Below, piece by piece: positions 28,367 through 46,374 of a stretch of 64,000 nt of DNA; within the stretch, counting starts at the first letter, position 1; every line of letters starts with the position of its first letter. Source of the stretch: an uncultured Bacteroidales bacterium. GTDB lineage: Bacteria; Bacteroidota; Bacteroidia; Bacteroidales; F082. The DNA lies in the NCBI GenBank assembly GCA_947166105.1, contig CAMVCZ010000010.1, forward strand, positions 3,037 through 67,036, in the 5' to 3' direction. The notes beneath the pieces were generated by a model. It did not search any database. It was not told the DNA's origin and was given only the letters and a program-made list of their open reading frames with translations. The position numbers and the translations under genes are program-made.

Positions 28367-28408
28367 GTTTAGAGTTTAGGGTTTAGGGTTTAGAGTTTAG
28401 AGTTTAAT
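28367..28408. repeat. six tandem heptamers (GTTTAGA, GTTTAGG x2, GTTTAGA x2, GTTTAAT)
   Basis: Read directly from the sequence. The array spans most of the 32-nt spacer between the two antiporter genes and extends through the stop and last codons of the upstream copy. Confidence 0.9.
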
Positions 28409-31690: not shown

Positions 31691-31695
31691 AAAAG

Positions 31696-32295
31696 TTATA
31701 CCATGTATTTAACGAGTTCATCCATGAGTTTCCCGATGCGCATAACGATTGCGTATGAGTATAGTTTCGTGATGTCACAATCCTTTCGCGAGAGATAGTT
31801 TCGGAATATCTCAGAGCTAACATCAATTCCCACGCGGTTGCGGTACTTGATGGCATCGCAAACCGACTTCTCCAGGTCATAGATTTTCACCGTGAAGCCT
31901 TCTATGACAGCCTCAGTCACGCCAAGTTCAAAAACCTTACTGCTGAGGTAGAAGAGTTCTATCGGCGGGTAATCCGGCAGAACCACCTTGCGGCTGCGTT
32001 CGATAGCGATGCAATAGGAAAGGGGTATCTGCGTGCTCAGCCCATAATGTGACCAGGCTGAATACATACACAACACGCCGCTTGGCACGAGTCGTTCCAC
32101 GTCAACCATAGGTTTGGCCAGCCCCTCGCTAAGCGCATAGATTCCTTGGCGCACCCGTATGATAGTCCCTTTCTCGGCTTCATAAAGAAGCTGGTTGTAC
32201 AGGTTTTTCTCCTTGGCCTCCGCCGAGGAGATATACCCTCCATTCTGGTTTATATACTCTTTGATGTCCACTTTTTCGCAAATATATTGCTGCAA
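31696..32295 (-). CDS. abiEi: AbiEi-family type IV antitoxin/transcriptional regulator
   Basis: The N-terminal wHTH-like region ends in GTIIRVRQGIYAL, the family-typical R..rGvY. 199 aa. The ORF-track start is a TTG, so the true start is uncertain. Confidence 0.65.
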   Translation of the reverse strand: MQQYICEKVDIKEYINQNGGYISSAEAKEKNLYNQLLYEAEKGTIIRVRQGIYALSEGLAKPMVDVERLVPSGVLCMYSAWSHYGLSTQIPLSYCIAIERSRKVVLPDYPPIELFYLSSKVFELGVTEAVIEGFTVKIYDLEKSVCDAIKYRNRVGIDVSSEIFRNYLSRKDCDITKLYSYAIVMRIGKLMDELVKYMV

Positions 32296-32416: not shown

Positions 32417-32659
32417 TCAAATTAATCCATCATTATAATGTTTACCTGTTACATAATCTTCAAGAATCAGATTACCCCATTTAGTTGAACCATTCCTTTC
32501 ACCCAAGAAATCATACCATTTCTTTAAAACCATTTCCGTGTTTGAAATGTAGAAATATCCACCCCCAGCGTCCTTGTATTTCTCGTAAAGTGCTCTTACA
32601 TACTTTCGCATCGGCCCCAATTTGATCTTGATAAGGGTTTTCTTTTCCGATTTTTTCAC
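32417..32659 (-). CDS. 80-codon ORF, probably the displaced C-terminal part of the upstream palm-like gene
   Basis: Starts at a GTG inside GGTGAAAAAATCGG. Its sequence looks protein-like (..YVRALYEKYKDAGGGYFYISNTEMVLKKWYDFLGERNG..), while the overlapping tail of the 32511..33221 ORF does not. Confidence 0.4.
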   Translation of the reverse strand: MKKSEKKTLIKIKLGPMRKYVRALYEKYKDAGGGYFYISNTEMVLKKWYDFLGERNGSTKWGNLILEDYVTGKHYNDGLI

Positions 32660-33200
32660 CTATAAACTCAAACCAATTTACACACGGCATTTCTACCCAG
32701 CCTTCTTTTTTTATTGGTATTATCATTTCAGTGACCAAGTCGGGGATGGTTAGATTGACCGCAACCGGCAGAATAAGATCTGCTTTCTCATAAGCTATTT
32801 TATCCAGTACTATGCCATAAAAAAACAGTTTGTTTTGGAGTTCATATACCCTTGCTAAAGGTTCGCCTAACCAAATGTTTCTTTCCTTGTCAATTGTAAT
32901 AGTACCATAAGAAATTGCTCCATTGACAGCATATCCATGTTTAATGCAATAAGCCTCAATTTGAGCACAAAACAAAACCAATGATTCATATCCATCAACT
33001 GAATCATCAATTGTAGCTGCCATTATTGAATCAGAGTAATAATTGATGATAAGATTATTCTTTCTATACACTTTTGTAATATCATCAATCTCAGCATATA
33101 ACATATAGATTTTTTTGACGCCTTCTGTTTTTATCAGGTTTTTTATGCCCATAATATCCAAGAAGGCAATAAATCTATTTTTTGTAATGCTATCCAACAT
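32511..33200 (-). CDS. hypothetical protein with palm-domain cyclase/polymerase-like motifs (possibly frameshifted)
   Basis: FIAFLDIMGIKNLI .. (41 aa) .. YYSDSIMAAT .. NGAISYGTITI resembles the two acidic motifs of class III cyclase, GGDEF, Cas10 and mCpol palm domains. ATG 33200 was chosen because the track start is a TTG. Confidence 0.35.
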   Translation of the reverse strand: MLDSITKNRFIAFLDIMGIKNLIKTEGVKKIYMLYAEIDDITKVYRKNNLIINYYSDSIMAATIDDSVDGYESLVLFCAQIEAYCIKHGYAVNGAISYGTITIDKERNIWLGEPLARVYELQNKLFFYGIVLDKIAYEKADLILPVAVNLTIPDLVTEMIIPIKKEGWVEMPCVNWFEFIGEKIGKENPYQDQIGADAKVCKSTLREIQGRWGWIFLHFKHGNGFKEMV

Positions 33201-33207
33201 ATTACGT

Positions 33208-34227
33208 TTATTTTTCAACAAGTTTAAAACTCTTCCAATAATGAGATTTTTGATAATAACTCAATATGCTTTTTGACAAAACAATAATTGGATTTGTAAA
33301 CAAAAAAGTATTTTGCTCAATTAAAGGTGGTAATCCCAACATGGAAATCTTAGGAGAACCACAAGAATAAAAAGCCTCATCCTTTATCCTTTTCACACTG
33401 GCAGGAATTGTTATAGTTTCCAAATAATCACAATACTTCATCATACCCCTTCCAATCTCTTCAATTCCATCTGGAAACACAATTGATTTCAAGGATTTAC
33501 AGTAAGAAAAACACTCATTACCTATATGATTTATACTATTTGAAAGTACAATGCTTTTTAGACTTCGACAACTCTCAAATGCCTTGTCTCCAATGCTTTG
33601 AATGTTAGAGCCAATGTCCAACACTCTCAATGAACCACAATTATAAAAAGAACCGTCACCAATTTCTTCAATAGTCTGGGGAAGATAGATTTCTTTAATA
33701 TCACCGCAATTCTTAAAAGCATCATCACCTATCTTTGTAATGGTATAGGTATTCCCTTTAAATACAACTCTATCAGGAATATACAACTTGCCTTTTACAT
33801 AATTACAATTCAAAACGACAGCATTTGTTCCCTCGATATTCAATGCAACAATATTACCATCATCAAACACTATGTAGAAATCATAATCGGTCTTTCGTTC
33901 GGATCCGCATTCTACTTTATAATTGATTTTGTTCTTTTTGAATTGACTATTTAACCCACTCGGTGCTGTTGCATAATTATCTAAATCTAGACTTTTGATT
34001 TTTTCTATTGCAGCTTTACTTGAAGGATTTAATGCCAAATACTTGTACACTGTCGACTTTGCCGAATCGATTTTCCCCATACCCTCATATGCATCAGCCA
34101 ACCAAAGATAGGCCTCTTCCTTTTTCGGGTCGTTTTCAATGACTACCTGAAAAAACTCAATTGCTTGAAGAAATTGTCCTTTCTGGCACAACTCTATTCC
34201 TTTTTTTATTAATTGGTTATTATCCAT
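33208..34227 (-). CDS. TPR + BspA-type leucine-rich-repeat (LRR_5) protein, no signal peptide
   Basis: N-terminal TPRs (GQFLQAIEFFQVVIENDPKKEEAYLWLADAYEGMG). C-terminal repeats of the ..I.IP.SV..IG..AF..C..L.. type (IGDDAFKNCGDIKEIYLP, IGDGSFYNCGSLRVLDI, IGDKAFESCRSLKSIVL and others). Confidence 0.7.
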   Translation of the reverse strand: MDNNQLIKKGIELCQKGQFLQAIEFFQVVIENDPKKEEAYLWLADAYEGMGKIDSAKSTVYKYLALNPSSKAAIEKIKSLDLDNYATAPSGLNSQFKKNKINYKVECGSERKTDYDFYIVFDDGNIVALNIEGTNAVVLNCNYVKGKLYIPDRVVFKGNTYTITKIGDDAFKNCGDIKEIYLPQTIEEIGDGSFYNCGSLRVLDIGSNIQSIGDKAFESCRSLKSIVLSNSINHIGNECFSYCKSLKSIVFPDGIEEIGRGMMKYCDYLETITIPASVKRIKDEAFYSCGSPKISMLGLPPLIEQNTFLFTNPIIVLSKSILSYYQKSHYWKSFKLVEK

Positions 34228-34247: not shown

Positions 34248-35495
34248 TTAAATTTCCTCCCAAACCAGCCTCACCCTAAACGGATGCTCTTCCATTTTCC
34301 AAACCAAAACCCGTTCCTTTTCTGCCATGCCCACCTCATCATAATAAGGCACAAATGCATCACCGTTGTACTCCTTCAGAAGAATGTCCATTTTTCTGAC
34401 CAATTGCTGTTTTTCAGCATAACCTTTGTCATTGTCGTTTTGGGCATATCGCAGTTCAATCTTGCTTTTATCGGTATGATCGCCTGCCATTTCCAAACGG
34501 TTGCGTCTATCCTTGGCTTCCATAATCTTTTTGTTGACCGCAAGGATGCTGGCTTTGGTCAGAGCAATCTGCCACAAAATGAACTTCGGCAAAGCATCGA
34601 CCAATTTCACTTCATCATACACACAGGCAATCGACATGTCATCCTGACTGCCACGTTTGCTCAGCACTGGCAGGGTCTCTTTGATGTCCGCAAAGGTAGC
34701 ATCATAACCATCAGTTACCAAGGACTTGGCCACTTTCACATAGAAATTCACCAAATTGGTTTCTTCGCCAAAAGAGTCGTCCATGCCATCGGATCCAAGA
34801 AAAATGGCAACAGGGAAGCCACCATCGCCTTGATAGGTGTAGCGGAACTCGTTCAAGGCATCGGAATCGCAAATCGAAGTGGTCTTGTTGAGGAAGCAGC
34901 GGTCGTCCCAAAGCACAGGTTCTTTCCATTGTGCCTCATGGTCGAATGAAATCATCTTTCCGTCGCCGAGATGGAAGGCAAACCAATATTTTGGCGTTTG
35001 CACATACGCCATCAACGTGCAACCATAAATCTTTTCCAACTTATAGCCTGACAAAAACTCCTTTTTGTACTGATCTTCAACCTGAGCATTCTCCTTTTCG
35101 GTCAGAGGATTCTCAGCAGCATGTCGCTCAATCCGTTGCTGCCATTGGCTGATGATGGAGGCGAACAACTGCCTGAAAGCCATATCGACAGGCTTTTCCT
35201 TGCGGAAATCCTGACGGTCTATTTCCGTCTGAATGGCCGCTTGTTGGGTGAATGGCTGGCCAACAAGCAGAGTTTCGTCAATATGATTGACAAACTCCCT
35301 TACATTGTTGGCGATAATCTCGGTGGCAAAACGTGCTCCCACATCGCTGCGGAAATAGTGCTTTCCACCGTGGCCATCACACACAACGGCAATGGCCAGA
35401 CCATTCTCGTCAACATGACTGTAAGAATAGTCTTGGCACATTTTATCAGTTGCCTTGTGGCTTTCGCCTTGGCAATGAAAATCGAAACACCTCAT
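34248..35495 (-). CDS. PP2C-family Ser/Thr protein phosphatase (TerY-P triad component)
   Basis: CQDYSY..AIAVVCDGHGGKHYFRSDVGA and a later GSDGMDD. ATG 35495 was chosen because the track start is a TTG. Confidence 0.8.
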   Translation of the reverse strand: MRCFDFHCQGESHKATDKMCQDYSYSHVDENGLAIAVVCDGHGGKHYFRSDVGARFATEIIANNVREFVNHIDETLLVGQPFTQQAAIQTEIDRQDFRKEKPVDMAFRQLFASIISQWQQRIERHAAENPLTEKENAQVEDQYKKEFLSGYKLEKIYGCTLMAYVQTPKYWFAFHLGDGKMISFDHEAQWKEPVLWDDRCFLNKTTSICDSDALNEFRYTYQGDGGFPVAIFLGSDGMDDSFGEETNLVNFYVKVAKSLVTDGYDATFADIKETLPVLSKRGSQDDMSIACVYDEVKLVDALPKFILWQIALTKASILAVNKKIMEAKDRRNRLEMAGDHTDKSKIELRYAQNDNDKGYAEKQQLVRKMDILLKEYNGDAFVPYYDEVGMAEKERVLVWKMEEHPFRVRLVWEEI

Positions 35496-35506: not shown

Positions 35507-36250
35507 TTAATCCCAATCGTCAGAATATGAGCTGCCGTCAACTTTCGTTGCGACTTCGGCACCGTCGATGTTATCCACGGCATTCTGTACTTCGCTAATC
35601 ACCTGGTCTTGCTTTGTGGTGTCGCCAGCAGTACTGCTCTTGCTACCTATCTGCGAAGATGTAACGGCCACCACGCGGATGATCTGCTTCAACGCGTCAA
35701 TGTTGTGAACCGTAAACACGGCCTCGTTGGTACCCGTAAACTTGGCTAACACTTCCTTGTCAGCATCGTCGCCGATGGCAATGGCCACCTTGATGGCCGA
35801 TTTGAACCAGTTGTTGGCTTTCAGTTTCGCTAGACCAGCCTCATAATTGTCGGTAGGGGCACCGTCGGACAATAGAATGATTGCAGGGGCAAACGAGCCA
35901 CTTGCAGACTGCATGAAGCCCTTGCTGCGCGACAGTTTGTTTTCCAATTCTTCGCAAGCTGCACCCAATGAGGTCAGGCCGTTGGCTTGAACATCTTGCC
36001 AAACAAATTCATTGGCCAATTTCGGCTCGTTGTAGAGCCAGTTGCAGCCCGTCGAGAACTCCAAAGCTGCCACCTTGATCTCGGCATCCGGATTGGTGAC
36101 GGAAATCTCGTCCAACATGGGCAGCACATTAACCACCGCATCATTGACAGCTCCGATTTTGCTTCCAGCCATACTACCGGAAGTGTCAATCATGAAGAAA
36201 AGCGTCATAGTTCTACGCGGTACACTTACAGTTTCGTCTAATAGTGACAT
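35507..36250 (-). CDS. vWA-domain protein, TerY-like (TerY-P triad component)
   Basis: MIDAS motif DTSGSM in LFFMIDTSGSMAGSKI, then ..GLTSLGAA.. and ..ILLSDGAPTD... 247 aa. Confidence 0.8.
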   Translation of the reverse strand: MSLLDETVSVPRRTMTLFFMIDTSGSMAGSKIGAVNDAVVNVLPMLDEISVTNPDAEIKVAALEFSTGCNWLYNEPKLANEFVWQDVQANGLTSLGAACEELENKLSRSKGFMQSASGSFAPAIILLSDGAPTDNYEAGLAKLKANNWFKSAIKVAIAIGDDADKEVLAKFTGTNEAVFTVHNIDALKQIIRVVAVTSSQIGSKSSTAGDTTKQDQVISEVQNAVDNIDGAEVATKVDGSSYSDDWD

Positions 36251-36262
36251 AATGCTTTGATT

Positions 36263-37534
36263 TTATTGATTATTGATTATGATCTCTCCTTTATTGGCGG
36301 CATTAAAGCCAACCTTGATGCCGTGTTTGACAGGCATAAACTCATTCGGTTCAACCGACTTGACTTTCCCGCTTGGTGTTTCAGCCGTCCATTTTTCTTT
36401 CGTCAGGTTTTGCAAAAGCAGCATATTCCTGTCCTGTGGATTGACGGCGACACGTGCATCTGGTGTGTTGTCGTAGTCGATAAAGAGTCGGGTTCCATTG
36501 GTCAGCAACAGAGTGCGTAATCCTAATTTCAACCTCCTTCTGACATCCACGTCACGCCCGCAATTCATACATTGCGGCTTTGCCTCATCTATGAATGTTT
36601 CTTCGCCACAATGCGGACAAATTACCAACTTGTCACGCAATGAGGCAATCAGCTTCCCCCAATTCTGTTCTATCATTCGGCTTTGTGGATTCTTCAACAT
36701 TTCCGGGCTAAACTCGCGAATAAAAGTATCGCGCAATTCGGCAGGCATGACAGGCCAACGACGTATTACATTCTGATGAATGCCCCTAACAGGCAGATTG
36801 GTCTTGTTATTAGGGTCATAAATGAAAACCGCTTCGCTACCGTAAAACTTCTTTTCGTATGCCTCAGTCATGCAAGGACAGGCCACCACCTTGGCACCCT
36901 CAAACGGATGGTTGGCATAGAACAGCATAAACAAGATAACCGACAACGAAAAACGGTCGCTATACTTGTCGGGAATGCCGCCAGCCACTATCTCTGGCGC
37001 CATATAACGTGCCTTGCCCATAATGCCCGATTTTTCGCCTTGTGGCATCACGTTGTCGTTGTCGCAAATCAGAACGTCGCCCGTGTCGGGATCGATGAAG
37101 AAATTACCATCGTTCAAGTCCTGGTAGCTATAGCCAAAACGGTGCAGCATCATAAAGCCGTTGCAGATCTTCATTGCAGCGGCCATCATTGCCTGAAATG
37201 ATTTGAAACTTTTTTTCGCCAAAAGGAAGTTGCCAAATTCAAAATAATTCTGAGGGCGCAGTGCCATCACATAGCCAAAACTTCCTTTTTGTCGCTCTGA
37301 AATGCGTTCTGGCCAAAGAAATGCCGAACTTGGAGCACCATTCATAACATTATTTGCCAAATTATTGTAAAAGCTCACATCAGGCATGTTATGGTACCAT
37401 TTCAATGCCTTCGGCTGGCCATTCAAATCGACCAAATACACAATTCCCTGGCCACCTCGCCCAAGTTCCTTTTTTATAGTGACAAAGCCACCGTTGAGGA
37501 GGCTAATTTTCTCTCCTGTTCTCAGTTCGCTCAT
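36263..37534 (-). CDS. Ser/Thr protein kinase with C-terminal zinc ribbon and FHA-like tail (TerY-P triad component)
   Basis: Gly loop GRGGQGIVY, Lys in PKALKWY, catalytic loop YQDLNDGNFF, CDNDN (the DFG equivalent) and RYMAPEI. CPHCGEE..CMNCG zinc ribbon. Start at ATG 37534, downstream of its own promoter box. Confidence 0.8.
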   Translation of the reverse strand: MSELRTGEKISLLNGGFVTIKKELGRGGQGIVYLVDLNGQPKALKWYHNMPDVSFYNNLANNVMNGAPSSAFLWPERISERQKGSFGYVMALRPQNYFEFGNFLLAKKSFKSFQAMMAAAMKICNGFMMLHRFGYSYQDLNDGNFFIDPDTGDVLICDNDNVMPQGEKSGIMGKARYMAPEIVAGGIPDKYSDRFSLSVILFMLFYANHPFEGAKVVACPCMTEAYEKKFYGSEAVFIYDPNNKTNLPVRGIHQNVIRRWPVMPAELRDTFIREFSPEMLKNPQSRMIEQNWGKLIASLRDKLVICPHCGEETFIDEAKPQCMNCGRDVDVRRRLKLGLRTLLLTNGTRLFIDYDNTPDARVAVNPQDRNMLLLQNLTKEKWTAETPSGKVKSVEPNEFMPVKHGIKVGFNAANKGEIIINNQ

Positions 37535-37557: not shown

Positions 37558-37565
37558 CAAAAATA
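37558..37565 (-). promoter_or_regulatory. -7 promoter box (TATTTTTG) heading the kinase-vWA-PP2C module
   Basis: The reverse complement of caaaaata, 23 nt upstream of ATG 37534, inside the only sizeable (55-nt) gap of the island. Confidence 0.45.
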
Positions 37566-37589: not shown

Positions 37590-38363
37590 TCAAAACCAAA
37601 TCTCGTCATTAACGACACTCTCCACTTCATTTTCCAGCTTATCAGGTAAAGTGTAGAAAAAATCGATGCCAGTCAATGACTCAATCTCATCAATGGTCTT
37701 TGTATATACCGACAAAGGTTTGTGTCCAGCTACGTTCTCAAAATAAAAACCAACACCTTCATATTTGCCGTTTTTGCAAACCAGAAGCACCTTGTAGAAT
37801 GCATCTGGAACCGCAACCAGATTACGACCTATCACACCGTTTTTAGCTTCTCCTACAACGGGCCCGGCTGCAATATAAACATTTCCATATCGACGGGCAT
37901 AATCGCGGCATTTTTCCTCCAAGGACCGCCAATCGCCTCCATTCAAATTGTGGTTTTGAGGACAAATGTTTGTGAAATAGCAACTCTCCAACATGGCTTG
38001 TTCGTCCCACTTCATATCACCAGCTGGAGCAATGTGACCTTTGTCCCATCCCGTGTTTCGATAGTCATCATTGTCAGCTTGCTTCCCTCTCGCATCGGGG
38101 TCAGGAAAGTAACGGCTGTTTCGTTTGCAGGTGCCGTTCACTTCAATATCGGTAAGCTCGTATGCCACACAATTCGGCAGCCTCGTATCCTTGTTGTACG
38201 AAACCGTGTAGCCCATGTGTACGATAACCTGGTTTTCCCTGCTATCCATTACTCTTGGCGTTTCAATAGGTACAGTGTTAACCGCCTCGGTTTTCTTGAC
38301 GTTGGCACAAGAGACCTGCAAAAGCGTTAACAGCGTGGCAATTATGTAAATTAAGTCACTCAT
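37590..38363 (-). CDS. DNA/RNA non-specific endonuclease (Endonuclease_NS/NucA-like), lipoprotein
   Basis: Signal peptide with lipobox (MSDLIYIIATLLTLLQVSC). Active-site region GWDKGHIAPAGD (the DRGH equivalent) and NICPQNHNLNGGDW. ATG 38363 overlaps the channel stop (ATGA). Confidence 0.8.
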   Translation of the reverse strand: MSDLIYIIATLLTLLQVSCANVKKTEAVNTVPIETPRVMDSRENQVIVHMGYTVSYNKDTRLPNCVAYELTDIEVNGTCKRNSRYFPDPDARGKQADNDDYRNTGWDKGHIAPAGDMKWDEQAMLESCYFTNICPQNHNLNGGDWRSLEEKCRDYARRYGNVYIAAGPVVGEAKNGVIGRNLVAVPDAFYKVLLVCKNGKYEGVGFYFENVAGHKPLSVYTKTIDEIESLTGIDFFYTLPDKLENEVESVVNDEIWF

Positions 38364-39130
38364 TCGTTTGTTTTCTCCTCTTTTTTGTTTTTTGATTCTT
38401 TCAAAGCACGAAGTTCGTCCAAATAGCTTGCTGTGATAACACCTGATGGTAAGGCAATGATAGCCACGCCAAAAAGTGACGATAGCATACTGATAAACCT
38501 TCCAAGGTCTGTTACAGGACACAGATCACCATAGCCAACGGTTGTTAATGTGACCGTAGCCCAATACAATGCATCAAAGAACGAAGAAAAAGTCTCAGCT
38601 CCTGTATCAGGATTGACTCGTGGTTCCGCATTAAACATAATTAATGCCGTCAGGAATATGTAGAATACCGCTATCACTAACACGGTAAGAAGCACATTCT
38701 TTTCTTTCTTGATGACATTCAAAAACAAAGAAACTTTGTCAGTATACCTCAACAATTTGAGTAAACGAAACACACGCAGCACCCTCGACAACCTGAATAT
38801 CTTGAACGCGGGGTTCAATACATTCAATCCGGGCAAAATAGACATCATGTCTATTATTGCCATTGGTGTGAGAGGATATAAAGCAAATGACCATCCTTTT
38901 TTGTTTAGTTTCAGGTCGGCAGTAATCCACCGAAACACATAATCCACGATGAAGATAACAGTGGTTATCTTGTCCACTGCCTTGAACCAGGGCAATTCAA
39001 CAGTAAACATCAAAGGAATGATGCTTAATACAATAACAACCAACATGAAAACATCATACACCTTACTGGTGATGCTGTTATGGCTGTCCTTTTCGATGAT
39101 GTCAAATATTTTAGCTCGCGTATGCGCCAT
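38360..39130 (-). CDS. 6-TM voltage-gated-type potassium channel
   Basis: S4-like FRLSRVLRVFRLLKLLRY with Arg at every third position, and the selectivity filter TLTTVGYGD. ATG 39130 was chosen because the track start is a TTG. Confidence 0.85.
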   Translation of the reverse strand: MAHTRAKIFDIIEKDSHNSITSKVYDVFMLVVIVLSIIPLMFTVELPWFKAVDKITTVIFIVDYVFRWITADLKLNKKGWSFALYPLTPMAIIDMMSILPGLNVLNPAFKIFRLSRVLRVFRLLKLLRYTDKVSLFLNVIKKEKNVLLTVLVIAVFYIFLTALIMFNAEPRVNPDTGAETFSSFFDALYWATVTLTTVGYGDLCPVTDLGRFISMLSSLFGVAIIALPSGVITASYLDELRALKESKNKKEEKTNE

Positions 39131-39143
39131 AATCAATGCGGTT

Positions 39144-40319
39144 TTAATTTGTTTTCTTTAGTTCCGAAAGTATCTTTTCATATTTGATTGGCAGCACAAC
39201 GGATTGCTTGCTTTGTGAATCTGCCAATTCTATAGCTTCAGTTATTTCCTGATTGTCAGCAATGTTATCTCTAATCATAATAGCATCATCCATCGTCAAG
39301 ACACACGTAGTTGGCTTCTGCATTGGTTTAGTTGGCCTGATGAAATTGGAATGCGTAACGCCTCCATCTTCTAGATTCTTGATACTGGTAGTAAACGTGG
39401 TTGAGCGTATTGATTCCAATCGCATCGCGCCACGAACCATTTTTTCATTCATTACATGAGTCCAATTGTAAATGTCAGCATCTGGCGCAATCCTTTTGAT
39501 ATTCAGTGCCGCGAACCTGTCTCTTTCAAATTCCACCCATAGCTGCCCTTCAGTATGACCTGTTTTCCACATGGCCACCTGTACATAGCAGACGTTCACT
39601 GAAACGGTAAACATCAGACCTGCCAAATAATACGCCAAACTTAAAATGCTGTCAGTCGTTTCTTGTGTAATCTCTCTTTGTAGCTTGTCTTTGTAGGTTG
39701 AACCCAAACGTGCCGTATAAACTTCTTTTATCGCTGGAACACCCATGTCAAAGGGAAGTTCAACATCCAAGGCTACGCAACGATTCCGTTTTGTGTATTC
39801 CACATTCAGTTTCAGGTCGTATGGCAGCCTTAAATTGGAGAATATGGCACTAACCCCTGCCATCACATAGTCATCTTCGCCTGAGATGTGTTTCTCTAGT
39901 TTTGACTTTTCTTCAAGGAACGCTTCAAGATAAGTATGATTCTGTTTGGCCTCATTATAATCCTCCAGCTTTTCAAAGAAATCAGCCAACCTTAACCATT
40001 GCTTTTGACGATCATTAAAAGCTTTATCAAGATGAGTAGAAACATAATCGGCTACTTTTTTATCTCTTTCATTCGCTTCCGACTCAAACAGGAACTTCGC
40101 TTCTTCTTCCAGCAACGCTTTCACTTCCTTTTTCTGCGGCTTGGCAAAGCCAAATCTCTTCCTGGAATACTTCTTTTGTCCCAATTGCGTCAGTAGGTTT
40201 TCAAAGTACATGGAAGGTCTTATTTCTGGTATGTCTTTATGCAACCCAGTAAGCTTCTTGGTTAGCGCATTGGGCTCCAATCCCAAGTTAGACCTCAAAA
40301 TGGTGTGTGTGCTTTTCAT
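39144..40319 (-). CDS. hypothetical protein (391 aa), no family recognised
   Basis: Long ORF with normal composition, wedged between hxsC (16-nt gap) and the channel gene (13-nt gap). Confidence 0.6.
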   Translation of the reverse strand: MKSTHTILRSNLGLEPNALTKKLTGLHKDIPEIRPSMYFENLLTQLGQKKYSRKRFGFAKPQKKEVKALLEEEAKFLFESEANERDKKVADYVSTHLDKAFNDRQKQWLRLADFFEKLEDYNEAKQNHTYLEAFLEEKSKLEKHISGEDDYVMAGVSAIFSNLRLPYDLKLNVEYTKRNRCVALDVELPFDMGVPAIKEVYTARLGSTYKDKLQREITQETTDSILSLAYYLAGLMFTVSVNVCYVQVAMWKTGHTEGQLWVEFERDRFAALNIKRIAPDADIYNWTHVMNEKMVRGAMRLESIRSTTFTTSIKNLEDGGVTHSNFIRPTKPMQKPTTCVLTMDDAIMIRDNIADNQEITEAIELADSQSKQSVVLPIKYEKILSELKKTN

Positions 40320-40335
40320 CGTTTTCTCCTTCTAA

Positions 40336-41205
40336 TTAACTTTGCTTATTAAGTCCTATATACTCTTTAGCGGAAGTGCTGAACAAGCCACAACACTTTT
40401 CCTTTACCGAACAATCATCGCAAATCTTCGAGTATTTTATCTTCCAATCAGAAATGCTTCTTTTTGCAAACACCCAGCAATCTTTGGGCAACAGACATAA
40501 TGGGATATTGTAGACTGCAACTGGTACACCCCAACTATCCAAAATCATCGCTGCTTCTCTCAAGTAAGAGGCATATTCGTAGGGCTCAGCCCAAATCAAA
40601 GACTGGTTCTTGACCGAATATCCTATTCTTTCCATTCCCATGAATGCCACCCATGAGACAAAGGGCAGATTCTTGAAAATGAATTCTGCCATTTGCGGCA
40701 AGCGTTTGTAGTTCATGGCATTGATAACAACCCGCAATTCTATCTCTACACCCTCAGCAGCCAAATTATACAATCCATAAACGGTTTCCTCAAAAGCATG
40801 TTTGCTTCCCGCTATTGCATCATGGTCTTTCAAATAATCGGAATGTAAGGGTATGCCTACGAAAAACTCTTCTCCAGCGGCTTGTGCCACACGATGGGCA
40901 TAATCAGCATCCTTAAATTTTCTACCATTGCTAAGCAATTGAATGGCGGTGTTTGGCAGGTGCTTCCTGATTTCAACAATAAGATCAACTAGTCTTTCTC
41001 CCAAAAGAGTCGGCTCACCACCTGTTATTCCTAAAACCTTCAATCCCTCTGGAGCACTCTTCAACAATTGAAGATTCTTCTGATATAATGCTTCTATGTC
41101 ATCAACAGTCGATGGCGGCTGACAACACATTAGGCAATTATTATTGCATTGCTCGGTGACGAACAAAGCATTGTCGTTGGAATCTATGTCAAAACCATTT
41201 TTCAT
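40336..41205 (-). CDS. hxsC: His-Xaa-Ser system radical SAM maturase HxsC
   Basis: CxxxCxxC motif CNNNCLMC near the N-terminus, a C-terminal Cys cluster CDDCSVKEKCCG, about 290 aa, and a position directly after hxsB with an ATGA overlap. Confidence 0.8.
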   Translation of the reverse strand: MKNGFDIDSNDNALFVTEQCNNNCLMCCQPPSTVDDIEALYQKNLQLLKSAPEGLKVLGITGGEPTLLGERLVDLIVEIRKHLPNTAIQLLSNGRKFKDADYAHRVAQAAGEEFFVGIPLHSDYLKDHDAIAGSKHAFEETVYGLYNLAAEGVEIELRVVINAMNYKRLPQMAEFIFKNLPFVSWVAFMGMERIGYSVKNQSLIWAEPYEYASYLREAAMILDSWGVPVAVYNIPLCLLPKDCWVFAKRSISDWKIKYSKICDDCSVKEKCCGLFSTSAKEYIGLNKQS

Positions 41206-42605
41206 AGAAGCCAAGTTTTGAATATGGGAACAACTTCATCTTTACGCTCAACAATCAAGGAAATCAAGTATTCTATGATAGCCTTGTTTTTCTTACACAA
41301 CAACGATGATGGCCTATGGCCATACATATCGCCTTGTGTTGAATAGTTTCTAACGGGGTCTGCACCACAATACGCTTTCAACGCACAATCAGAACAACCC
41401 GCCAGCGATTCATTTGCCCAAATCTCAGCTATATCACGAACCTTATTTCCGTACACAACATCTTCATAACGGTCAAACACGCTACCAAGCTGGAATGTGT
41501 AGTCTCCCTTTTCCGCCAACATCCTTGATTCATCTGAAGCATACACGTAGCCGTCATAGTTGTAAACGAGAACAGAATTAACGATGCCTGCTGGTGATTG
41601 TAGGTCGACAAAACCAGTGCTAAATGGTGTGAGCATCTTGCGCAAAATAATGATGGCAAACTCTTCGGCAAAATGAACGCCTTGTTTGTTGAGCTCCAGA
41701 ATATGCTCAAATGCCTTTTTATAGAAATCAATAAACTTCCGCGTGTAATCTTCCCAATCAGGATTGTCTGAGGCTAAACCGTATGGATTTAAGGCTCTTA
41801 AAAACAAGCTCTTGAACCCAAGTTTAGCATATTCATCGACAATTTCTACGGGATGGTTTAATCCCCGAACTGATGTCGTCATCAATGCAGAAACTTGTTC
41901 GTTGCCTAAAGCTTTACGAGCCTTTTCAATCCCAGCAACGACTTTTTCATAGCTATCCGTTTTTCCTCTATTAGCGTTGTGTAAAAAAGCAGGTCCATCC
42001 AAAGAGGTGGAAATCATCACACGATATTGCTTGCAGATGTCCAGCATCTCGTCCGTCAGATTCACACAGTTGGTGCAAAGCACATACCTCACTTCTCGGC
42101 CATCGACCAGCCTTTTCTCTTCAGCTTTTTCTATGCCGAAACGGATAAGCTCAGGATGTAAGCTCGGTTCGCCTCCTTGAAACTCCATCGTAAGGACTGG
42201 TGCAGGTGAACGGAACATGAGTTCAACAGAACGTTCCATTACTTCATACGACATAGTACAATGCTCACTTTGTTCTTTGCGGCTCGAAGCCTGGCAATAG
42301 ACACAATTCTGATTGCATTGCAAGGTCACGACAAAGATGTGCAATGCCGTGAAGTAATCCATAAACCGTTTCTTTTCTCTCAATCGAGCAGCATAAACAT
42401 CCAGTAGGGGAGGTACCAATTCTTCGCTGATAAAGAAGTTGGCCACCAAAGATTTATACAAATCATCTTTTCCCATTTGTCGGTCAATAATCCGTTGGAC
42501 TGTGCCCTCTGGAACAACCATCATATCACCCACTTCGTTGACAAGTATTTCTTTGTCAGCAATTCGGGTGAAATTAAATGGTAAAAGATGATACTGCATT
42601 TTCAT
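41202..42605 (-). CDS. hxsB: His-Xaa-Ser system radical SAM/SPASM maturase HxsB
   Basis: CNQNCVYC radical SAM motif and a C-terminal SPASM-like CSDCALKAYCG..LC. 467 aa, with ATGA overlaps on both sides. Confidence 0.8.
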   Translation of the reverse strand: MKMQYHLLPFNFTRIADKEILVNEVGDMMVVPEGTVQRIIDRQMGKDDLYKSLVANFFISEELVPPLLDVYAARLREKKRFMDYFTALHIFVVTLQCNQNCVYCQASSRKEQSEHCTMSYEVMERSVELMFRSPAPVLTMEFQGGEPSLHPELIRFGIEKAEEKRLVDGREVRYVLCTNCVNLTDEMLDICKQYRVMISTSLDGPAFLHNANRGKTDSYEKVVAGIEKARKALGNEQVSALMTTSVRGLNHPVEIVDEYAKLGFKSLFLRALNPYGLASDNPDWEDYTRKFIDFYKKAFEHILELNKQGVHFAEEFAIIILRKMLTPFSTGFVDLQSPAGIVNSVLVYNYDGYVYASDESRMLAEKGDYTFQLGSVFDRYEDVVYGNKVRDIAEIWANESLAGCSDCALKAYCGADPVRNYSTQGDMYGHRPSSLLCKKNKAIIEYLISLIVERKDEVVPIFKTWLL

Positions 42606-42898
42606 TCGGCTTCCTCGATATTAAAATCTTCGTAGTCGGCAAATGCTTTTGCATACAAGATTGTTCGGATGTCTTTTGTTTCTTCTGCTACTATTTGCCT
42701 CAATTTAAAGTCGTTCAACTTTTGAAGAAACAGTCTTTCGGCATCCTCATCCGAAATGAATCCATTTGTCGGAATCAGTTCTATGCTTTCAGTATTGCCA
42801 TCTAGTTGTCTATTACATTGAAAGACCTCCGATAAACTATATACGCATTTACTGATGCATTCATCAGAATAAATGTTCCTATCAATCAGAATCTTCAT
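42602..42898 (-). CDS. hxsD: His-Xaa-Ser system protein HxsD
   Basis: 98 aa. Contains KLNDFKLRQ, matching the LLNDYxLRE signature after which the TIGRFAMs HxsD model is named. Confidence 0.8.
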   Translation of the reverse strand: MKILIDRNIYSDECISKCVYSLSEVFQCNRQLDGNTESIELIPTNGFISDEDAERLFLQKLNDFKLRQIVAEETKDIRTILYAKAFADYEDFNIEEAE

Positions 42899-43770
42899 TT
42901 TGCAGATGCCTTTAGTCTTTCAATCGTAGTCCTGTCTGCTATTCCAGTGACTTCAAGTCCAGCAAAAGCTTGGAAAGTCTTTACTGCCTTCCTCACTTCT
43001 TCATTGTACTTGTTCCCATCCAGTTTCTCTGGCTCTGGTGGGAAGCCAGCCTTGTTTAAGAGTTCAATTAAAGCAAGCACATCTGCACCGCTATCATTTT
43101 GTTTCAAGTCCCTTACACCCAATACAAGTGTTGATTTTGAGCTGTTCCAAGTACCTAAAAGCGATACTTCTGTTTCTCCAACTATACCAGTTTCTTTGAT
43201 TTTAGCGTCTTTTTGGAACTGCTTTACAGCTCTTTCAACATCTTGATTAAACAAGTAATAATCCGATTGCGTCGCTGAAAAGTCGTTCCGTAAATAGTAA
43301 TTAGACTGAAGCTTTGAAACCAATTCATTGACATCCTTTCCATACAGCCCTCTCTTTAATGTACGGTCGCCAAGTGAATAGGTCTTGTACGTCTTAGCAG
43401 CAGGTTTAGGCGTAGAATACAGTCCGCTTGCAGTTCCCGAGCTACTTGAATAATGCGAACTTGAATAGTGGGAACTTGAATAATGCGAACTATGCCCGCT
43501 TCTGCTCGAACGGTGTGAGCTGTGCGAACGGTGCGAGCTGTGTGAACGATAACTATCTACGCCAATCATCGTTCCATCCGGCTTTAGTTTTATAACATGT
43601 TTGAAAACCTTTTGCTTCATGATGTCTAGTTCTTCAGCATTGCTGTTGCCAAGATCGTCAAGTGATGGCAGTGTGGGTACTTCAGCCTTCAATTCAGAAT
43701 GAAACAGCGACAAAACGGCTGAGGCCAAAAGTGATTTGATGATTCTTTGAGAAGTCTTATTCATTTTCAT
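42895..43770 (-). CDS. hxsA: His-Xaa-Ser repeat protein HxsA with two C-terminal peptidoglycan-binding (PG_binding_1-like) repeats
   Basis: Signal peptide MKMNKTSQRIIKSLLASAVLSLFHSELKA. Repeat tract SHSSHRSHSSHRSSRSGHSSHYSSSHYSSSHYSSS. PG-binding-like VKQFQKDAKIKETGIVGETE and VKTFQAFAGLEVTGIADRTT. Start at ATG 43770 (ATGA overlap with the upstream stop). Confidence 0.8.
   Translation of the reverse strand: MKMNKTSQRIIKSLLASAVLSLFHSELKAEVPTLPSLDDLGNSNAEELDIMKQKVFKHVIKLKPDGTMIGVDSYRSHSSHRSHSSHRSSRSGHSSHYSSSHYSSSHYSSSSGTASGLYSTPKPAAKTYKTYSLGDRTLKRGLYGKDVNELVSKLQSNYYLRNDFSATQSDYYLFNQDVERAVKQFQKDAKIKETGIVGETEVSLLGTWNSSKSTLVLGVRDLKQNDSGADVLALIELLNKAGFPPEPEKLDGNKYNEEVRKAVKTFQAFAGLEVTGIADRTTIERLKASAK
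43441..43551 (-). repeat. coding tandem repeats specifying the H-x-S tract
   Basis: Plus-strand reiterations cttgaataatgcgaa/cttgaatagtgggaa/cttgaataatgcgaa and gaacggtgtgagctgtgc/gaacggtgcgagctgtgt. Confidence 0.8.
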
Positions 43771-45209
43771 TTTGTTGTACGTTTCTTTATAAAGTTCAGC
43801 CAATAATCATTGGGGTTGTATTTCAAAAGAGCCTCCAATTCTTTTTTACTATCTTCGCTTAGCTTTCCCTTGTTTTTAGATATGTCTTTCAATAATGAAT
43901 CAAACCTAATTTCAAAGGATTCATTTGCCTTCAATTGGTATCTTTTTACCACACTTTGAATCCTTTCAGTATACCTGCCATCATTTCTAACTTGCTTTGG
44001 AATAACTCCGATAAATTCCTCTATTGGCAAATAGTCATTATTTGCTGCTATGATGGCATTACATTGCCTTTCAAACTCATCAATGGCTTGTTCACTTAAT
44101 TCTTTCAGCTTCCCATCCACCTTAGATTGATACATCTGTTGCTTATAGCTAATCCCATAGAATTCTATTCCATTCTCGTATGCTAAATAGGCTTTGTCAA
44201 ACTGCTTCAATGACATCAAACTGTCACCTTCTCCAATCTTATTCTCGATTGCTAATATGCTGGGTTTGTTTGCCGCATATCGAGCCTTGGATATGGCAAT
44301 TATTGTGAGGACAGCAACTATTATCGCAATCATTGAGAACAATGCAATACGGACAGATTTTCTTCGCTTATTAGCTGCGTCAATTGCAGCTTGCATGTCC
44401 TTTTTGCTGTCGAATGTAACTGGCAACCTTAGTATAGTCTGTGCTTTACGCAACTTCATAGCCATTTCATCTAATTTGCTAACTGTGGCATCTTCATAGA
44501 AAGGCTTCGCTCCAGTAAGCAAACCTTTTGATACAACAATACTATCTGTCAATAGCTTGTTGTAATCCCCAGTCAAACTGTCAATTGTAGCTTGTGCGAC
44601 AGATTTCATTTTGCTATATGGTGCTCTATACTTAGCCAGGCAATCTAATTTCTTGTTCTTACACCAATCAACATCCTTTTCGTTTAAGTGCTGCATGAGC
44701 AATGCTATCTTTCCCTCCCAGAAATACAATTCATTACATGCATCTACACCATAGTATGCATCATCAAGCCCTAAGCAATCTTTTACTTTAGTGATAAGTC
44801 TCTCTAAGCTTTTTGTGTAACTCTTTTTTGCATTTTCAAGTTCCTGCTCAGGATCTGTAATCACAGCTTCAACTGCATCAGCATCTGAAATAAGCCCAAC
44901 GCCTTGAAGCAATCCATAGACCACATCCGAAACTTCTTTTTTGTCAAAATTGCCTCTTGAGACAAAGTCTAACACATAATCCTCGTTTTGCTGTTTCCAG
45001 TCTGCTTTGTGTTCATTCAGCCATCCAATTATCTTTGCGCCATAGCCATCGGCAATCAAACTCTTTATAATGAGTTTTTCTTTTCCATCCGCTATTCGAA
45101 ATGCTCCATAATCGGCCAAGACGTTTACAAAACTTGACGACCTAAGTGTATCAACACCGAGCGCATCTACTGCTTGCTTGACCGCTTCTTTGATTTGAAC
45201 ATTTTTCAT
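43767..45209 (-). CDS. hypothetical single-pass membrane protein (480 aa)
   Basis: One central TM helix (IALFSMIAIIVAVLTIIAISKA) between two helical soluble halves. Its stop overlaps the hxsA start. Confidence 0.6.
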   Translation of the reverse strand: MKNVQIKEAVKQAVDALGVDTLRSSSFVNVLADYGAFRIADGKEKLIIKSLIADGYGAKIIGWLNEHKADWKQQNEDYVLDFVSRGNFDKKEVSDVVYGLLQGVGLISDADAVEAVITDPEQELENAKKSYTKSLERLITKVKDCLGLDDAYYGVDACNELYFWEGKIALLMQHLNEKDVDWCKNKKLDCLAKYRAPYSKMKSVAQATIDSLTGDYNKLLTDSIVVSKGLLTGAKPFYEDATVSKLDEMAMKLRKAQTILRLPVTFDSKKDMQAAIDAANKRRKSVRIALFSMIAIIVAVLTIIAISKARYAANKPSILAIENKIGEGDSLMSLKQFDKAYLAYENGIEFYGISYKQQMYQSKVDGKLKELSEQAIDEFERQCNAIIAANNDYLPIEEFIGVIPKQVRNDGRYTERIQSVVKRYQLKANESFEIRFDSLLKDISKNKGKLSEDSKKELEALLKYNPNDYWLNFIKKRTTK

Positions 45210-45241
45210 AGTGAACTATCTAATTCCATTATATTTCTACA

Positions 45242-46336
45242 TTATACACTTACCATCGAAAGCAGGTTCACCACAAACCAGCTATCAAAACCTTGAAACA
45301 CCATTCGCTTGGAATTACCATCCTTCAGCACTTCAATGCCGTCGGAATACGGAGTGATACCAACCAATTTCTTGTATGGTATCTTCACACCTTTTTCCGT
45401 TGAATAGAATATGAAGTCCTGATTGGTCACATACAGATCGCCAACGGCTACTTTTTCCATATACTTATGCTCAACGGGATGTCCTTTTGACCTACCAGTG
45501 TGGTAATAAACCCCTTTCATTACCTTAAAGCTGAACCCTCCACTATTCCTGACAAATTCTTTCTCTATCTTTTCCTGATAGAAAGTTACATTGTTGTATG
45601 TCCACAACAATGATTCATTTTTCCCTAAAAGCACAGGAAGTTGAACAAATGTGGAGGGCATTATGCCTTTGGCAAAATTCTTCAGAACCGTCATTTGACC
45701 CAGCTTTGCCAAATCCGTATCCTTATATTTTACTGGCAGATTATCAATAGGAAGCGAAAATGCCGAAGCAAAAGACCGTATCAATCCTTCTTCCTTATCG
45801 GTAAGGATGCCGTCTTTCATAAAATTCTCGGCAGCTTTGTTCAGCACATACAAATAGGCTTCGTTTTGTTCCTCTTGATTCAAAGGAAGTACAGCCATTA
45901 CCTCACGAATATTGCGCTTTACCTCGTTTTCAGTAGCGCCATCTGTGAAACACATCACCAAATGCCCTTTCACTACTTTTTGAGCCAATTTGCTTAATGT
46001 GTTATCCTTGTTCAAAACATTGTATGAAACATTCAACAGTTTCATCAAGCGACTAACATTTTGTTCAACGGCGTGAGTAAATGGCCTATGTATGGCATCG
46101 ACAAACTTGTCCAAGGCTTTTATGGCGCAATCCGTCCTCTCATCATCTGTTATATAGCCCTTATTCTGAATCCCATTAAAACGTTCAACAAAGTCTTTGT
46201 TCGTTAGAGGCTTACACAAATATGAAAACAAGAAACCCTCCATTTCTTGGATTCCGTTTTCGTGTTGCTCTTCACATTCTTTGTGTTTCGTCGAGAACAA
46301 TCCAACATCTTTTCCGCAATACTTACATTTTCCCAT
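45242..46336 (-). CDS. hypothetical protein, N-terminal CxxC zinc-ribbon-like motif and C-terminal bacterial PH/GRAM-like region
   Basis: MGKCKYCGK..HKEC at the N-terminus. The C-terminal part (..LLGKNESLLWTYNNVTFYQE..GDLYVTNQDFIFYS..) resembles bPH/YokE-like domains. This is the first gene after the island promoter box. ATG 46336 was chosen because the track start is a TTG. Confidence 0.55.
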   Translation of the reverse strand: MGKCKYCGKDVGLFSTKHKECEEQHENGIQEMEGFLFSYLCKPLTNKDFVERFNGIQNKGYITDDERTDCAIKALDKFVDAIHRPFTHAVEQNVSRLMKLLNVSYNVLNKDNTLSKLAQKVVKGHLVMCFTDGATENEVKRNIREVMAVLPLNQEEQNEAYLYVLNKAAENFMKDGILTDKEEGLIRSFASAFSLPIDNLPVKYKDTDLAKLGQMTVLKNFAKGIMPSTFVQLPVLLGKNESLLWTYNNVTFYQEKIEKEFVRNSGGFSFKVMKGVYYHTGRSKGHPVEHKYMEKVAVGDLYVTNQDFIFYSTEKGVKIPYKKLVGITPYSDGIEVLKDGNSKRMVFQGFDSWFVVNLLSMVSV

Positions 46337-46366
46337 TAGCAATGATTAGCCTCATAAATAATGCCG

Positions 46367-46374
46367 CAAAGATA
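46367..46374 (-). promoter_or_regulatory. -7 promoter box (TATCTTTG) heading the extended Hxs operon
   Basis: The reverse complement of caaagata, 30 nt upstream of ATG 46336. Confidence 0.45.

Follow-up and report, generated by a model that had tools for sequence, protein, structure and literature searches.

A Bacteroidales HxsADBC locus linked to a TerY-P module, a Kv-type channel and an exported nuclease: a candidate elaboration of the HXS anti-phage system

Introduction

HXS (HxsABCD) is a published anti-phage system that blocks the entry of phage DNA, and it was presented as the first host system shown to do so (Li et al., Nat Commun 2026, PMC13128918). Of 113 coliphages, 110 are restricted by E. 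coli HxsABCD; this protection needs all four genes and does not involve abortive infection (PMC13128918). HxsA, whose N-terminal processing depends on HxsB, HxsC and HxsD, requires both its signal peptide and its peptidoglycan-binding domain; an essential +8 Da modification of the protein was mapped to the SHRSS sequence, and mature HxsA stays and acts in the periplasm, where it binds DNA (PMC13128918). Among possible triggers, the authors name a loss of proton motive force. According to their survey, 99.7% of HXS systems are found in Pseudomonadota, 99.8% consist of four genes and 99.6% have the order D-B-C-A; the paper mentions no Bacteroidota, nucleases, potassium channels, kinases or TerY (PMC13128918). 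Originally, the Hxs families were proposed as a peptide-modification system. Here we analyze an Hxs locus within 64,000 nucleotides (nt) of contig CAMVCZ010000010.1 from assembly GCA_947166105.1, an uncultured Bacteroidales bacterium (F082); this whole stretch is referred to as the window. An earlier, sequence-only reading of the locus held that no function of Hxs proteins had been demonstrated, a statement that is now outdated (PMC13128918). We favor, with moderate confidence, the view that this locus represents HXS anti-phage defense as elaborated in Bacteroidales, a composite envelope defense in which several additional modules would be coupled to the Hxs core.

Two other described systems are relevant for comparison. 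Zorya consists of ZorAB, an ion-driven, peptidoglycan-anchored envelope sensor, and the ZorC/ZorD nuclease-helicase. The TerY-P triad was reportedly delineated by Anantharaman, Iyer and Aravind in 2012, and Gao et al. are said to have found in 2020 that TerY-P can act as stand-alone defense. The literature treats TerY-P as a defense or defense-associated switch that is tightly integrated into other defense operons, and as an add-on module of type II/III-A CoCoNuT systems (PMC11090510).

An Hxs core of distinct architecture

Nine minus-strand open reading frames lie back to back between positions 46342 and 37590 of the window, in the order g1-g2-HxsA-HxsD-HxsB-HxsC-g7-channel-nuclease, where g1 (45242-46336), g2 (43767-45209) and g7 (39144-40319) are our labels. 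Five start and stop codons overlap as ATGA (43767-43770, 42895-42898, 42602-42605, 41202-41205 and 38360-38363). The sequence-only reading had listed the same nine co-directional genes and the same five overlaps, all of which are present. It had also put the remaining junctions at 13-32 nt; two of them are indeed 32 and 16 nt, and the third is 7 nt, or 13 nt if the channel starts at its ATG.

We assigned protein families using Pfam, NCBIfam (with curated cut-offs) and PADLOC profile hidden Markov models (HMMs). HxsD (42602..42898, 98 aa), which shares ATGA overlaps with both of its neighbors, scores 73.6 bits against TIGR03976 (cut-off 50); its motif, KLNDFKLRQ, is a degenerate version of LLNDYxLRE. 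HxsB (41202..42605, 467 aa), a radical SAM/SPASM maturase with a PF04055 match, aligns to TIGR03978 over its full length with 570.8 bits (cut-off 370) and contains CNQNCVYC together with a C-terminal Cys cluster. The second radical SAM maturase, HxsC (40336..41205, 289 aa), adjoins HxsB with an ATGA overlap, represents a short Bacteroidales form, matches PF04055 and Fer4_12, contains CNNNCLMC and CDDCSVKEKCCG, and scores 339.6 bits against TIGR03977 (cut-off 267.9).

The fourth core protein, the HxsA-like effector (42895..43770, 291 aa), falls below the cut-offs of its curated models. BLASTP comparison with Pantoea HxsA was hampered by low-complexity sequence, so the two proteins were compared through their architecture instead. 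The window protein starts with a hydrophobic N-terminus (MKMNKTSQRIIKSLLASAVLSLFHSELKA) typed as a signal peptide, which is followed by tandem HxS repeats (HRSHSSHRSHSSH...; eight HxS triplets including SHRSS), a Ser-rich linker and two PG_binding_1 domains; it also bears the tract SHSSHRSHSSHRSSRSGHSSHYSSSHYSSSHYSSS. This is the architecture of the validated effector, namely a signal peptide, at least five HxS repeats including SHRSS, and a peptidoglycan-binding domain. Thus, judging by sequence, HxsB, HxsC and HxsD are identified by family membership and HxsA by domain architecture. All Hxs motifs quoted in the sequence-only reading were found, and its Hxs annotation holds at the level of curated cut-offs, the yardstick that it had itself proposed, for HxsD, HxsB and HxsC, though not for HxsA.

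Compared with the E. coli system, the window locus shares the paired radical-SAM enzymes and the small HxsD, all above curated cut-offs, an HxsA with signal peptide, tandem HxS repeats, SHRSS and peptidoglycan binding, and, as a prediction, action at the periplasm or cell wall. There are also differences. The host belongs to Bacteroidota, and the gene order is A-D-B-C rather than D-B-C-A; loci of Pseudomonas and Pantoea have D-B-C followed by A, unlike nearly all Bacteroidota loci. HxsA is longer, having eight HxS triplets and two peptidoglycan-binding domains in its 291 residues, and scores below the TIGR03979 cut-off, whereas HxsC is about 100 aa shorter. Finally, the core is accompanied by a nuclease, a Kv channel, g2, g7 and a TerY-P module. 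This Bacteroidota architecture appears to be undescribed in the searchable literature.

Two variations of the core were seen among related loci (the L numbers are our identifiers). Two tandem HxsA genes, giving the order A-A-D-B-C, are present in six loci (L007, L011-L014 and L040), of which L014 comes from Segatella bryantii DSM 11371 and L040 from Bacteroides faecichinchillae JCM 17102. Except in L007, the second copy is a short protein of 129-171 aa with four HxS triplets. HxsC is about 290 aa long in most Bacteroidales-type loci (L001-L046) and 360-410 aa long in Hymenobacter, other non-Bacteroidales Bacteroidota, Acidobacteriota and Pseudomonas (L047-L079), the short form lacking the N-terminal extension of the longer one.

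HxsB is a SPASM-type peptide maturase, kin of the ranthipeptide, sactipeptide and SCIFF maturases in NCBIfam. Together with the original peptide-modification proposal, this kinship might suggest a pathway for a ribosomally synthesized and post-translationally modified peptide (RiPP) or a bacteriocin, in which HxsA would be the precursor of a released peptide and the other genes would serve immunity or export. Such a pathway would hardly be expected to use a 291-aa protein with a Sec-type signal and two peptidoglycan-binding domains as its precursor. Moreover, Pfam and NCBIfam searches of the locus detected neither a leader-type protease nor an ABC exporter with a peptidase domain, and mature E. 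coli HxsA remains and acts in the periplasm. We therefore regard the RiPP explanation as very improbable and continue to read the core as an HXS-type defense.

The gene set of the window recurs around HxsB

The window HxsB was used as the query in a scan of one genome per species, and 10 kb on each side of every hit were collected. The resulting 79 loci come mostly from gut and rumen Bacteroidales, the rest from Hymenobacter, Acidobacteriota and Pseudomonas; the core order is A-D-B-C, as in the window, or A-A-D-B-C in 54 of the 79. When the 1,467 proteins of these loci, called as open reading frames, were clustered into families, the twelve largest neighbor clusters turned out to be exactly the twelve genes of the window from g1 to the PP2C phosphatase. 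We counted accessory families over the 54 Bacteroidota-type loci. The channel and the nuclease occur in 20 loci each, g2 in 19, g7 in 17, the TerY-P kinase and PP2C in 14 each, and the vWA protein and g1 in 13 each. At least one accessory family is found in 37 of the 54 loci, in 32 different orders, nearly all on the hxs strand. The sequence-only reading had proposed a neighborhood survey of this kind for the channel, the nuclease and the three unrecognizable proteins, and all five do recur with hxsBCD.

In the usual arrangement, TerY_C-kinase-vWA-PP2C-g2-A-D-B-C comes first, and g1, g7, the channel and the nuclease follow in no fixed order. A different order, g1-g2-A-D-B-C-g7-channel-nuclease-kinase-vWA-PP2C, is seen in the window and in its close relatives L001 and L002, and loci of the Alistipes/Cryptobacteroides type have A-D-B-C-nuclease-channel-g7 with no TerY-P triad within reach. 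In relatives, neighboring genes across module borders are separated by 3 to 32 nt or overlap by 4 nt. For example, L080 is ordered PP2C-g2-A-D-B-C-g1, with gaps of 3-7 nt between PP2C and g2 and between HxsC and g1. Because the content is kept while the order is shuffled across HxsB identities of 60-97%, the linkage itself appears to be under selection.

A second census was seeded with g1 and covered metagenome contigs; for accessory genes we compared loci of at least 12 kb, 10 with Hxs and 35 without. g2 was present in 9 of the 10 loci with Hxs and in none of the 35 others. The corresponding counts were 9/10 versus 2/35 for g7, whose linkage outside the HxsB loci rests on one look-up and this census, 7/10 versus 4/35 for the nuclease, and 5/10 versus 2/35 for the channel. 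Fisher p-values for the four genes range from 1e-8 to 4e-3 and are optimistic, as the compared loci are phylogenetically non-independent. In addition, for every accessory protein the pairwise divergences are correlated with those of HxsB (Mantel r 0.72-0.94), a correlation that may reflect shared species phylogeny. In these loci, g2, g7, the Kv channel and the nuclease track Hxs rather than TerY-P.

Another gene set was also noticed next to Hxs. An SGNH hydrolase with PD40 repeats, an MBOAT acyltransferase and a carbamoyltransferase follow HxsC or g7 in 13 genome loci (L012-L014, L017, L020, L021, L025, L040, L052, L053, L055, L057 and L062) and in 5 metagenome loci (L117, L157, L166, L170 and L174), and are absent from the window. 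By its domains, this set looks like an Hxs-linked envelope O-acylation/carbamoylation module.

A TerY-P module with a fifth gene

Beyond the nuclease, the same strand continues with a kinase, a vWA protein, PP2C, a TPR+LRR protein and a 229-aa gene, separated by about 10-20 nt or by short overlaps, depending on the start codon. The kinase (36263..37534, 423 aa; Pkinase 2e-13) carries a CxxC...CxxC zinc ribbon, ICPHCGEETFIDEAKPQCMNCG, C-terminal to the kinase domain, where we also obtained a weak TerY_C-like tblastn match. In PADLOC it matches only the PD-T4-6 and mad6 kinase models, and it is 67-97% identical in 16 related loci. The TerY-like vWA protein (35507..36250, 247 aa; VWA 3e-12) is 75-98% identical in related loci. 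The PP2C phosphatase (34248..35495; PP2C_2 7e-29), which is also present in related loci, is 415 aa long from its ATG or 422 aa from a TTG at 35516. The three genes are adjacent and co-directional with gaps of about 12 nt, as expected for a TerY-P triad. The triad occurs in 13-14 of the 54 Bacteroidota-type loci, always on the same strand as hxs. In 11 related genome loci and 35 metagenome loci, there is a TerY_C gene ahead of the kinase.

The first gene of the array, g1 (45242..46336), encodes a 364-aa cytoplasmic protein. Neither g1 nor g2 nor g7 belongs to a significant family in Pfam, NCBIfam or PADLOC, in keeping with their earlier description as unrecognizable. g1 has 334 homologs of uniform length, in which C4, C7, H18 and C21 are invariant. 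Its AlphaFold2 (AF2) model (predicted local distance difference test score, pLDDT, 86.8) shows an N-terminal CCHC zinc ribbon, a helical domain and a C-terminal PH/PTB-like fold, and Foldseek matches it to PH/PTB domains. The guess of a zinc-ribbon/PH-like protein in the sequence-only reading is thus supported. We also considered g1 as a guanine-nucleotide exchange factor and rejected this assignment, since the DH/PH similarity reached a TM-score of only 0.23.

Where does g1 belong? PP2C-g1 adjacency could be scored in 39 metagenome loci with at least 6 kb of upstream sequence. In 23 of them, g1 directly follows PP2C with no Hxs genes, and Hxs is present in 10. The contexts of g1 are accordingly of two kinds, TerY-P-g2-HxsADBC-g1 and TerY_C-kinase-vWA-PP2C-g1 without Hxs. 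Because PP2C is directly followed by g1 in the absence of Hxs in 23 of 39 loci, g1 counts as the fifth gene of the TerY-P module in Bacteroidales. In relatives in which both PP2C and g1 are visible, the Hxs cassette g2-HxsADBC is nested between them. The claim that the nine genes form one unit therefore needs revision: g1 belongs with TerY-P, and TerY-P, described as adjacent to the array, is moreover part of the same conserved neighborhood, which makes the set larger than nine genes. The functional unit probably comprises three interlocked modules and extends to at least 34248, probably to 32511.

With respect to known TerY-P modules, the window has the same vWA, PP2C and Ser/Thr kinase with C-terminal zinc ribbon, and its relatives have the preceding TerY_C gene. 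As in CoCoNuT-linked TerY-P, the triad is operon-integrated with an unrelated defense core and the kinase is fused to a zinc ribbon. What differs is the conserved fifth gene, which we did not find described, although the 2012 TerY-P paper may mention such contexts, and the partner, which in the window is a periplasm-acting radical-SAM system and not a cytoplasmic nuclease/helicase system.

Two more genes of the array lie downstream of PP2C. The TPR and BspA-type LRR protein (33208..34227, 339 aa; LRR_5 1e-39; cluster c27, in L007 and L051) recurs as a partner, and in relatives, several metagenome loci among them, its gene is often directly upstream of g1. The 229-aa protein (32511..33200; cluster c64), encoded by the last co-directional gene, belongs to no family; in L007 its homolog comes after the TPR-LRR gene.

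In many rumen Bacteroidales contigs, TerY_C-kinase-vWA-PP2C-g1 stands directly after BREX PglZ and BrxL (L084-L087, L093-L094, L104-L116, L121, L124, L138, L140-L149, L163 and others). The genes after the module are variable and include an FGE-sulfatase with UvrD/RNase_T, a 1500-aa DEAD helicase with a vWA protein, a PIF1-like helicase and an FtsK-like ATPase.

g2 carries an adaptor-like domain

g2 (43767..45209), found in 19 of the 54 loci, encodes a 480-aa single-pass membrane protein. A transmembrane scan places its helix at about residues 283-313 and predicts that the C-terminal part of about 165 aa is periplasmic. On the predicted cytoplasmic side, the N-terminal ~105 aa form a helical adaptor-like domain. 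In all loci that have the triad, g2 is located between PP2C and HxsA, and its stop codon overlaps the HxsA start as ATGA. Neither g2 nor g1 has meaningful sequence relatives in the PDB.

An iterated HMM search over loci L001-L174 detected the adaptor-like domain in 111 proteins with more than 20 architectures, in 102 of them at the N-terminus. Its C-terminal partners include the g2 membrane part, multi-transmembrane, TPR and FGE-sulfatase-domain proteins, FtsK/SpoIIIE ATPases with a gamma domain and a few vWA proteins. The consensus, MELHEAIKKIIDQFGKDILKEERLVNILSDYGAF..., which has no Pfam match, corresponds in the window to 44870-45200 (g2 residues ~4-112), and within the window the domain is found only in g2. 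Among 1.8 billion representative proteins, the N- and C-terminal parts of g2 also recur separately in other architectures. By analogy, the pattern resembles adaptors that join effectors to signaling cores in other conflict systems. Since the N-terminal domain of g2 marks genes beside the TerY-P module, we propose g2 as an adaptor. Our main argument that the Hxs cassette would be wired to TerY-P rather than parked beside it is that g2 carries this shared adaptor-like domain.

g7 (39144..40319) encodes a 391-aa, partly coiled-coil cytoplasmic protein of no known family, present in 17 of the 54 loci. Only 24 homologs could be found, even with a profile search. Its AF2 model has a pLDDT of 70, and neither Foldseek (best E 0.35) nor sequence searches returned a PDB match. 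One g7 homolog (L016:19198-20676) ends in a segment closely similar to the FtsK gamma DNA-binding domain, which hints at a DNA-related role for g7.

A Kv-type channel and a predicted exported nuclease

The channel gene (38360..39130) encodes 256 aa and matches Ion_trans (PF00520, 6e-31) and Ion_trans_2, falling below NCBIfam equivalog cut-offs. The protein has six transmembrane segments, an S4 segment reading RLSRVLRVFRLLKLLR, the selectivity filter TVGYGD and no cytoplasmic domain. The best PDB matches, KCNQ1, Kv2.1 and Kv1.x, align across S1-S6. By family, then, this is a Kv-type voltage-gated K+ channel. In 19 of the 20 HxsB loci that have it, the channel is on the hxs strand.

The last gene of the array (37590..38363), whose start overlaps the channel stop (ATGA, 38360-38363), encodes a beta-beta-alpha-Me non-specific nuclease of 257 aa with a lipoprotein-type signal, LLQVSC. 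Its Endonuclease_NS match (PF01223, 2e-50) scores 171.9 bits against a cut-off of 23. In alignment with EXOG, EndoG and NucA, the catalytic His and the metal-binding Asn are kept, DKGH corresponding to SRGH of EXOG. Full-length nuclease homologs in the related loci bear hydrophobic signal-like N-termini, from which we predict that export is conserved. In family membership and export signal, the protein is thus like Serratia/NucA-type nucleases. We know of no described periplasmic nuclease that is coupled to a DNA-trapping protein. The Ion_trans, Endonuclease_NS and PF04055 searches thus all confirmed the family calls made from the letters.

PADLOC assigned no system to the nine proteins: neither the channel nor the Endonuclease_NS protein has a PADLOC match, and HxsB and HxsC show only generic viperin-type radical-SAM similarity. 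Zorya is similar by functional analogy only. In both cases a peptidoglycan-binding envelope part, an ion-conducting membrane protein and a nuclease would form an anti-phage locus acting at or just after genome injection. The window channel, however, is a Kv-type tetrameric K+ channel rather than a MotAB-like stator, and the nuclease is exported, not cytoplasmic. Membership in Zorya was rejected, as no Zor model in PADLOC matches any of the nine proteins. Superinfection exclusion by T4 Imm/Sp likewise targets DNA entry at the envelope; the window locus differs in being host-encoded and multi-gene.

A model for the composite locus

By homology to the E. coli system, HxsB and HxsC, acting with HxsD, would mature HxsA in the cytoplasm. 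HxsA would then be exported and held on peptidoglycan by its two peptidoglycan-binding domains, where its basic HxS array would engage incoming phage DNA and block genome entry. Beyond this core, we infer every functional link between the modules. The exported nuclease may destroy DNA stalled in the periplasm, and the minimal Kv channel may sense or counteract the membrane depolarization linked to injection. As an adaptor, g2 could put HxsA maturation, its export or effector activity under phosphorylation control, and the TerY-P switch of kinase, phosphatase, vWA protein and g1 might sense or regulate the cassette. The defense context of the locus, with AbiE in the window and BREX PglZ/BrxL beside the TerY-P module in relatives, fits this scheme. 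The sequence-only reading had suggested a conflict/defense or envelope-stress role; defense is the best reading, and envelope stress has no specific support.

A stronger version is conceivable, in which the twelve or more genes constitute one integrated immune machine of the envelope that traps, senses and degrades, with TerY-P control exerted through the g2 domain. We consider this version doubtful. If it were true, no voltage-gated channel would have been assigned to prokaryotic immunity before this one, and across Bacteroidales the g2-type domain would bring many further effectors to TerY-P modules.

Functional coupling or defense-island co-location

The most serious alternative is a plain defense island, in which HXS, TerY-P with g1, AbiE, the channel and the nuclease would accumulate at one hotspot and move together as independent units, free of any functional coupling. 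Every module also occurs alone, and E. coli HxsABCD works alone. TerY-P-g1 follows BREX and is in turn followed by highly variable genes, a pattern typical of hotspots, and L002 has insertions within the array. Against this stands, first, the nature of the accessory genes: a channel and an Endonuclease_NS protein are not themselves known defense systems, yet each is found in 20 of the 54 loci, mostly on the hxs strand and within a few kb of hxsB, and both track Hxs, not TerY-P. Second, coding sequences overlap across module borders in the window (g2/HxsA and channel/nuclease), and in L080 they are separated there by the gaps of 3-7 nt already noted. Third, the cassette is nested inside the TerY-P-g1 unit, not appended to it, and g2 bears a domain common to other TerY-P-adjacent genes. 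On balance, mere co-location is possible but unlikely.

The composite-defense reading that we prefer is itself held only moderately, as a number of points weigh against it, starting with the phylogenetic cautions attached above to the p-values and correlations. HxsA scores 52.7 bits against TIGR03979 (cut-off 121.65), 25.9 against the HxsA2 model (48) and 23.5 against the HxsA3 model (65). The window has no TerY_C gene (PF15616), and in PADLOC the vWA and PP2C proteins match neither TerY-P nor any other system model. Many Bacteroidota loci have plain ADBC, and most g1 loci have TerY-P-g1 without Hxs. In L002, whose HxsB is 90% identical, a 554-aa gene lies between the channel and the nuclease and two genes lie between the nuclease and the kinase, all of them unrelated insertions; the nine-gene array is therefore not invariant even at short distance. 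Bacteroidota Hxs loci are known from sequence alone, and defense has been demonstrated for the E. coli system, in which HxsABCD suffices (PMC13128918), so that extra genes are dispensable for the basic mechanism. Finally, the roles given here to the channel, g2 and g7 are proposals, and g7 has no recognizable fold.

Transcription units and genomic surroundings

A Bacteroidetes-type -7 promoter-like box, TATCTTTG within TGTATCTTTGCGG, is located at 46367..46374 on the minus strand, in the intergenic region 24 nt upstream of the g1 ATG. A second one, TATTTTTG within TGTATTTTTGCGG, lies at 37558..37565, also on the minus strand, within the 55 nt that separate the nuclease from the kinase. As these two boxes are both intergenic and share a longer motif, TGTATnTTTGCGG, it is plausible that there are two transcription units, probably one from g1 to the nuclease and another from the kinase to the 229-aa gene. 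The limits of the operon had earlier been argued from the same boxes. The upstream box is real and intergenic, but the one at 37558 is not the next in line, as TAnnTTTG also occurs inside genes at 43901-43908 and 39636-39643. The 8-mer has 55 matches in the window where 38 +/- 6 are expected, about 1.4 times chance. The promoter argument is accordingly weaker than stated. No terminator-like site was seen in the nuclease-kinase gap, and scans for sigma-70 promoters and intrinsic terminators performed at chance level and gave no operon boundaries. Rfam and tRNA scans of the region returned no matches.

The locus is part of an AT-rich island (GC 0.39-0.43, versus about 0.49-0.50 in the flanks), in which GC drops to 0.35 around 32-34 kb of the window. 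The description of the array as lying in such an island beside TerY-P and AbiE was accurate. After the 229-aa gene, a complete AbiEi/AbiEii pair (30815-32295, minus strand; PADLOC 1e-54 and 9e-94) occupies the downstream end of the AT-rich stretch, and the genes flanking the stretch are housekeeping genes. The island is bordered by tandem paralogous Na+/H+ exchangers of 763 and 769 aa with two TrkA_C domains (26066-28357 and 28390-30699, minus strand).

These exchangers, together with a P-type ATPase encoded in the flanks, could be taken to favor a role in homeostasis, be it of the envelope, of metals or of ions. His-rich repeats can chelate metals, so HxsA would bind metal, TerY-P would sense it, the channel would balance K+ and the nuclease would scavenge DNA. 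Such a role sits poorly with the homologous system, which restricts 110 of 113 coliphages and whose periplasmic HxsA binds DNA. It fits no better with the neighbors in the window and its relatives, which are defense genes (AbiE, BREX, helicase/nuclease), or with the AT-rich stretch, whose gene content varies between relatives. We find homeostasis quite improbable and retain defense as the more probable function of the locus.

On the other side of the array, paralogous genes with AAA-ATPase_like and PDDEXK_9 domains are located at 46441-47985 (minus strand, 514 aa), immediately upstream of the g1 promoter region, and at 56365-57915 (plus strand, 516 aa). Between them, a 1345-aa SNF2-family helicase (48132-52169, plus strand; PADLOC DpdE 2e-153, ZorD 1e-119) is divergent from the island and is not conserved beside Hxs in other loci. 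A prophage or phage cargo origin was considered and rejected. The window contains no phage genes, and both Hxs and g1 are nearly absent from IMG/VR, with 2 distant matches each in 2.9 million viral contigs.

Implications

In the published picture, HXS is a four-gene system found almost exclusively in Pseudomonadota. Our analysis, by contrast, finds the Hxs core to be widespread in gut and rumen Bacteroidota. The sensing step of HXS and the fate of the blocked DNA are both open, and the nuclease and the channel bear directly on them. Their linkage to Hxs raises the questions of whether stalled DNA is degraded in the periplasm and whether the loss of membrane potential serves as a signal.

The same comparison defines a TerY-P module of five genes, one of which encodes a new PH-like component, along with a candidate adaptor domain shared by many of the genes beside that module. 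Together, g1 and the adaptor domain would help to explain how TerY-P is wired to different defense effectors. Few defense systems have been tested in Bacteroidales, a group of central importance for gut ecology and for work on phage therapy.

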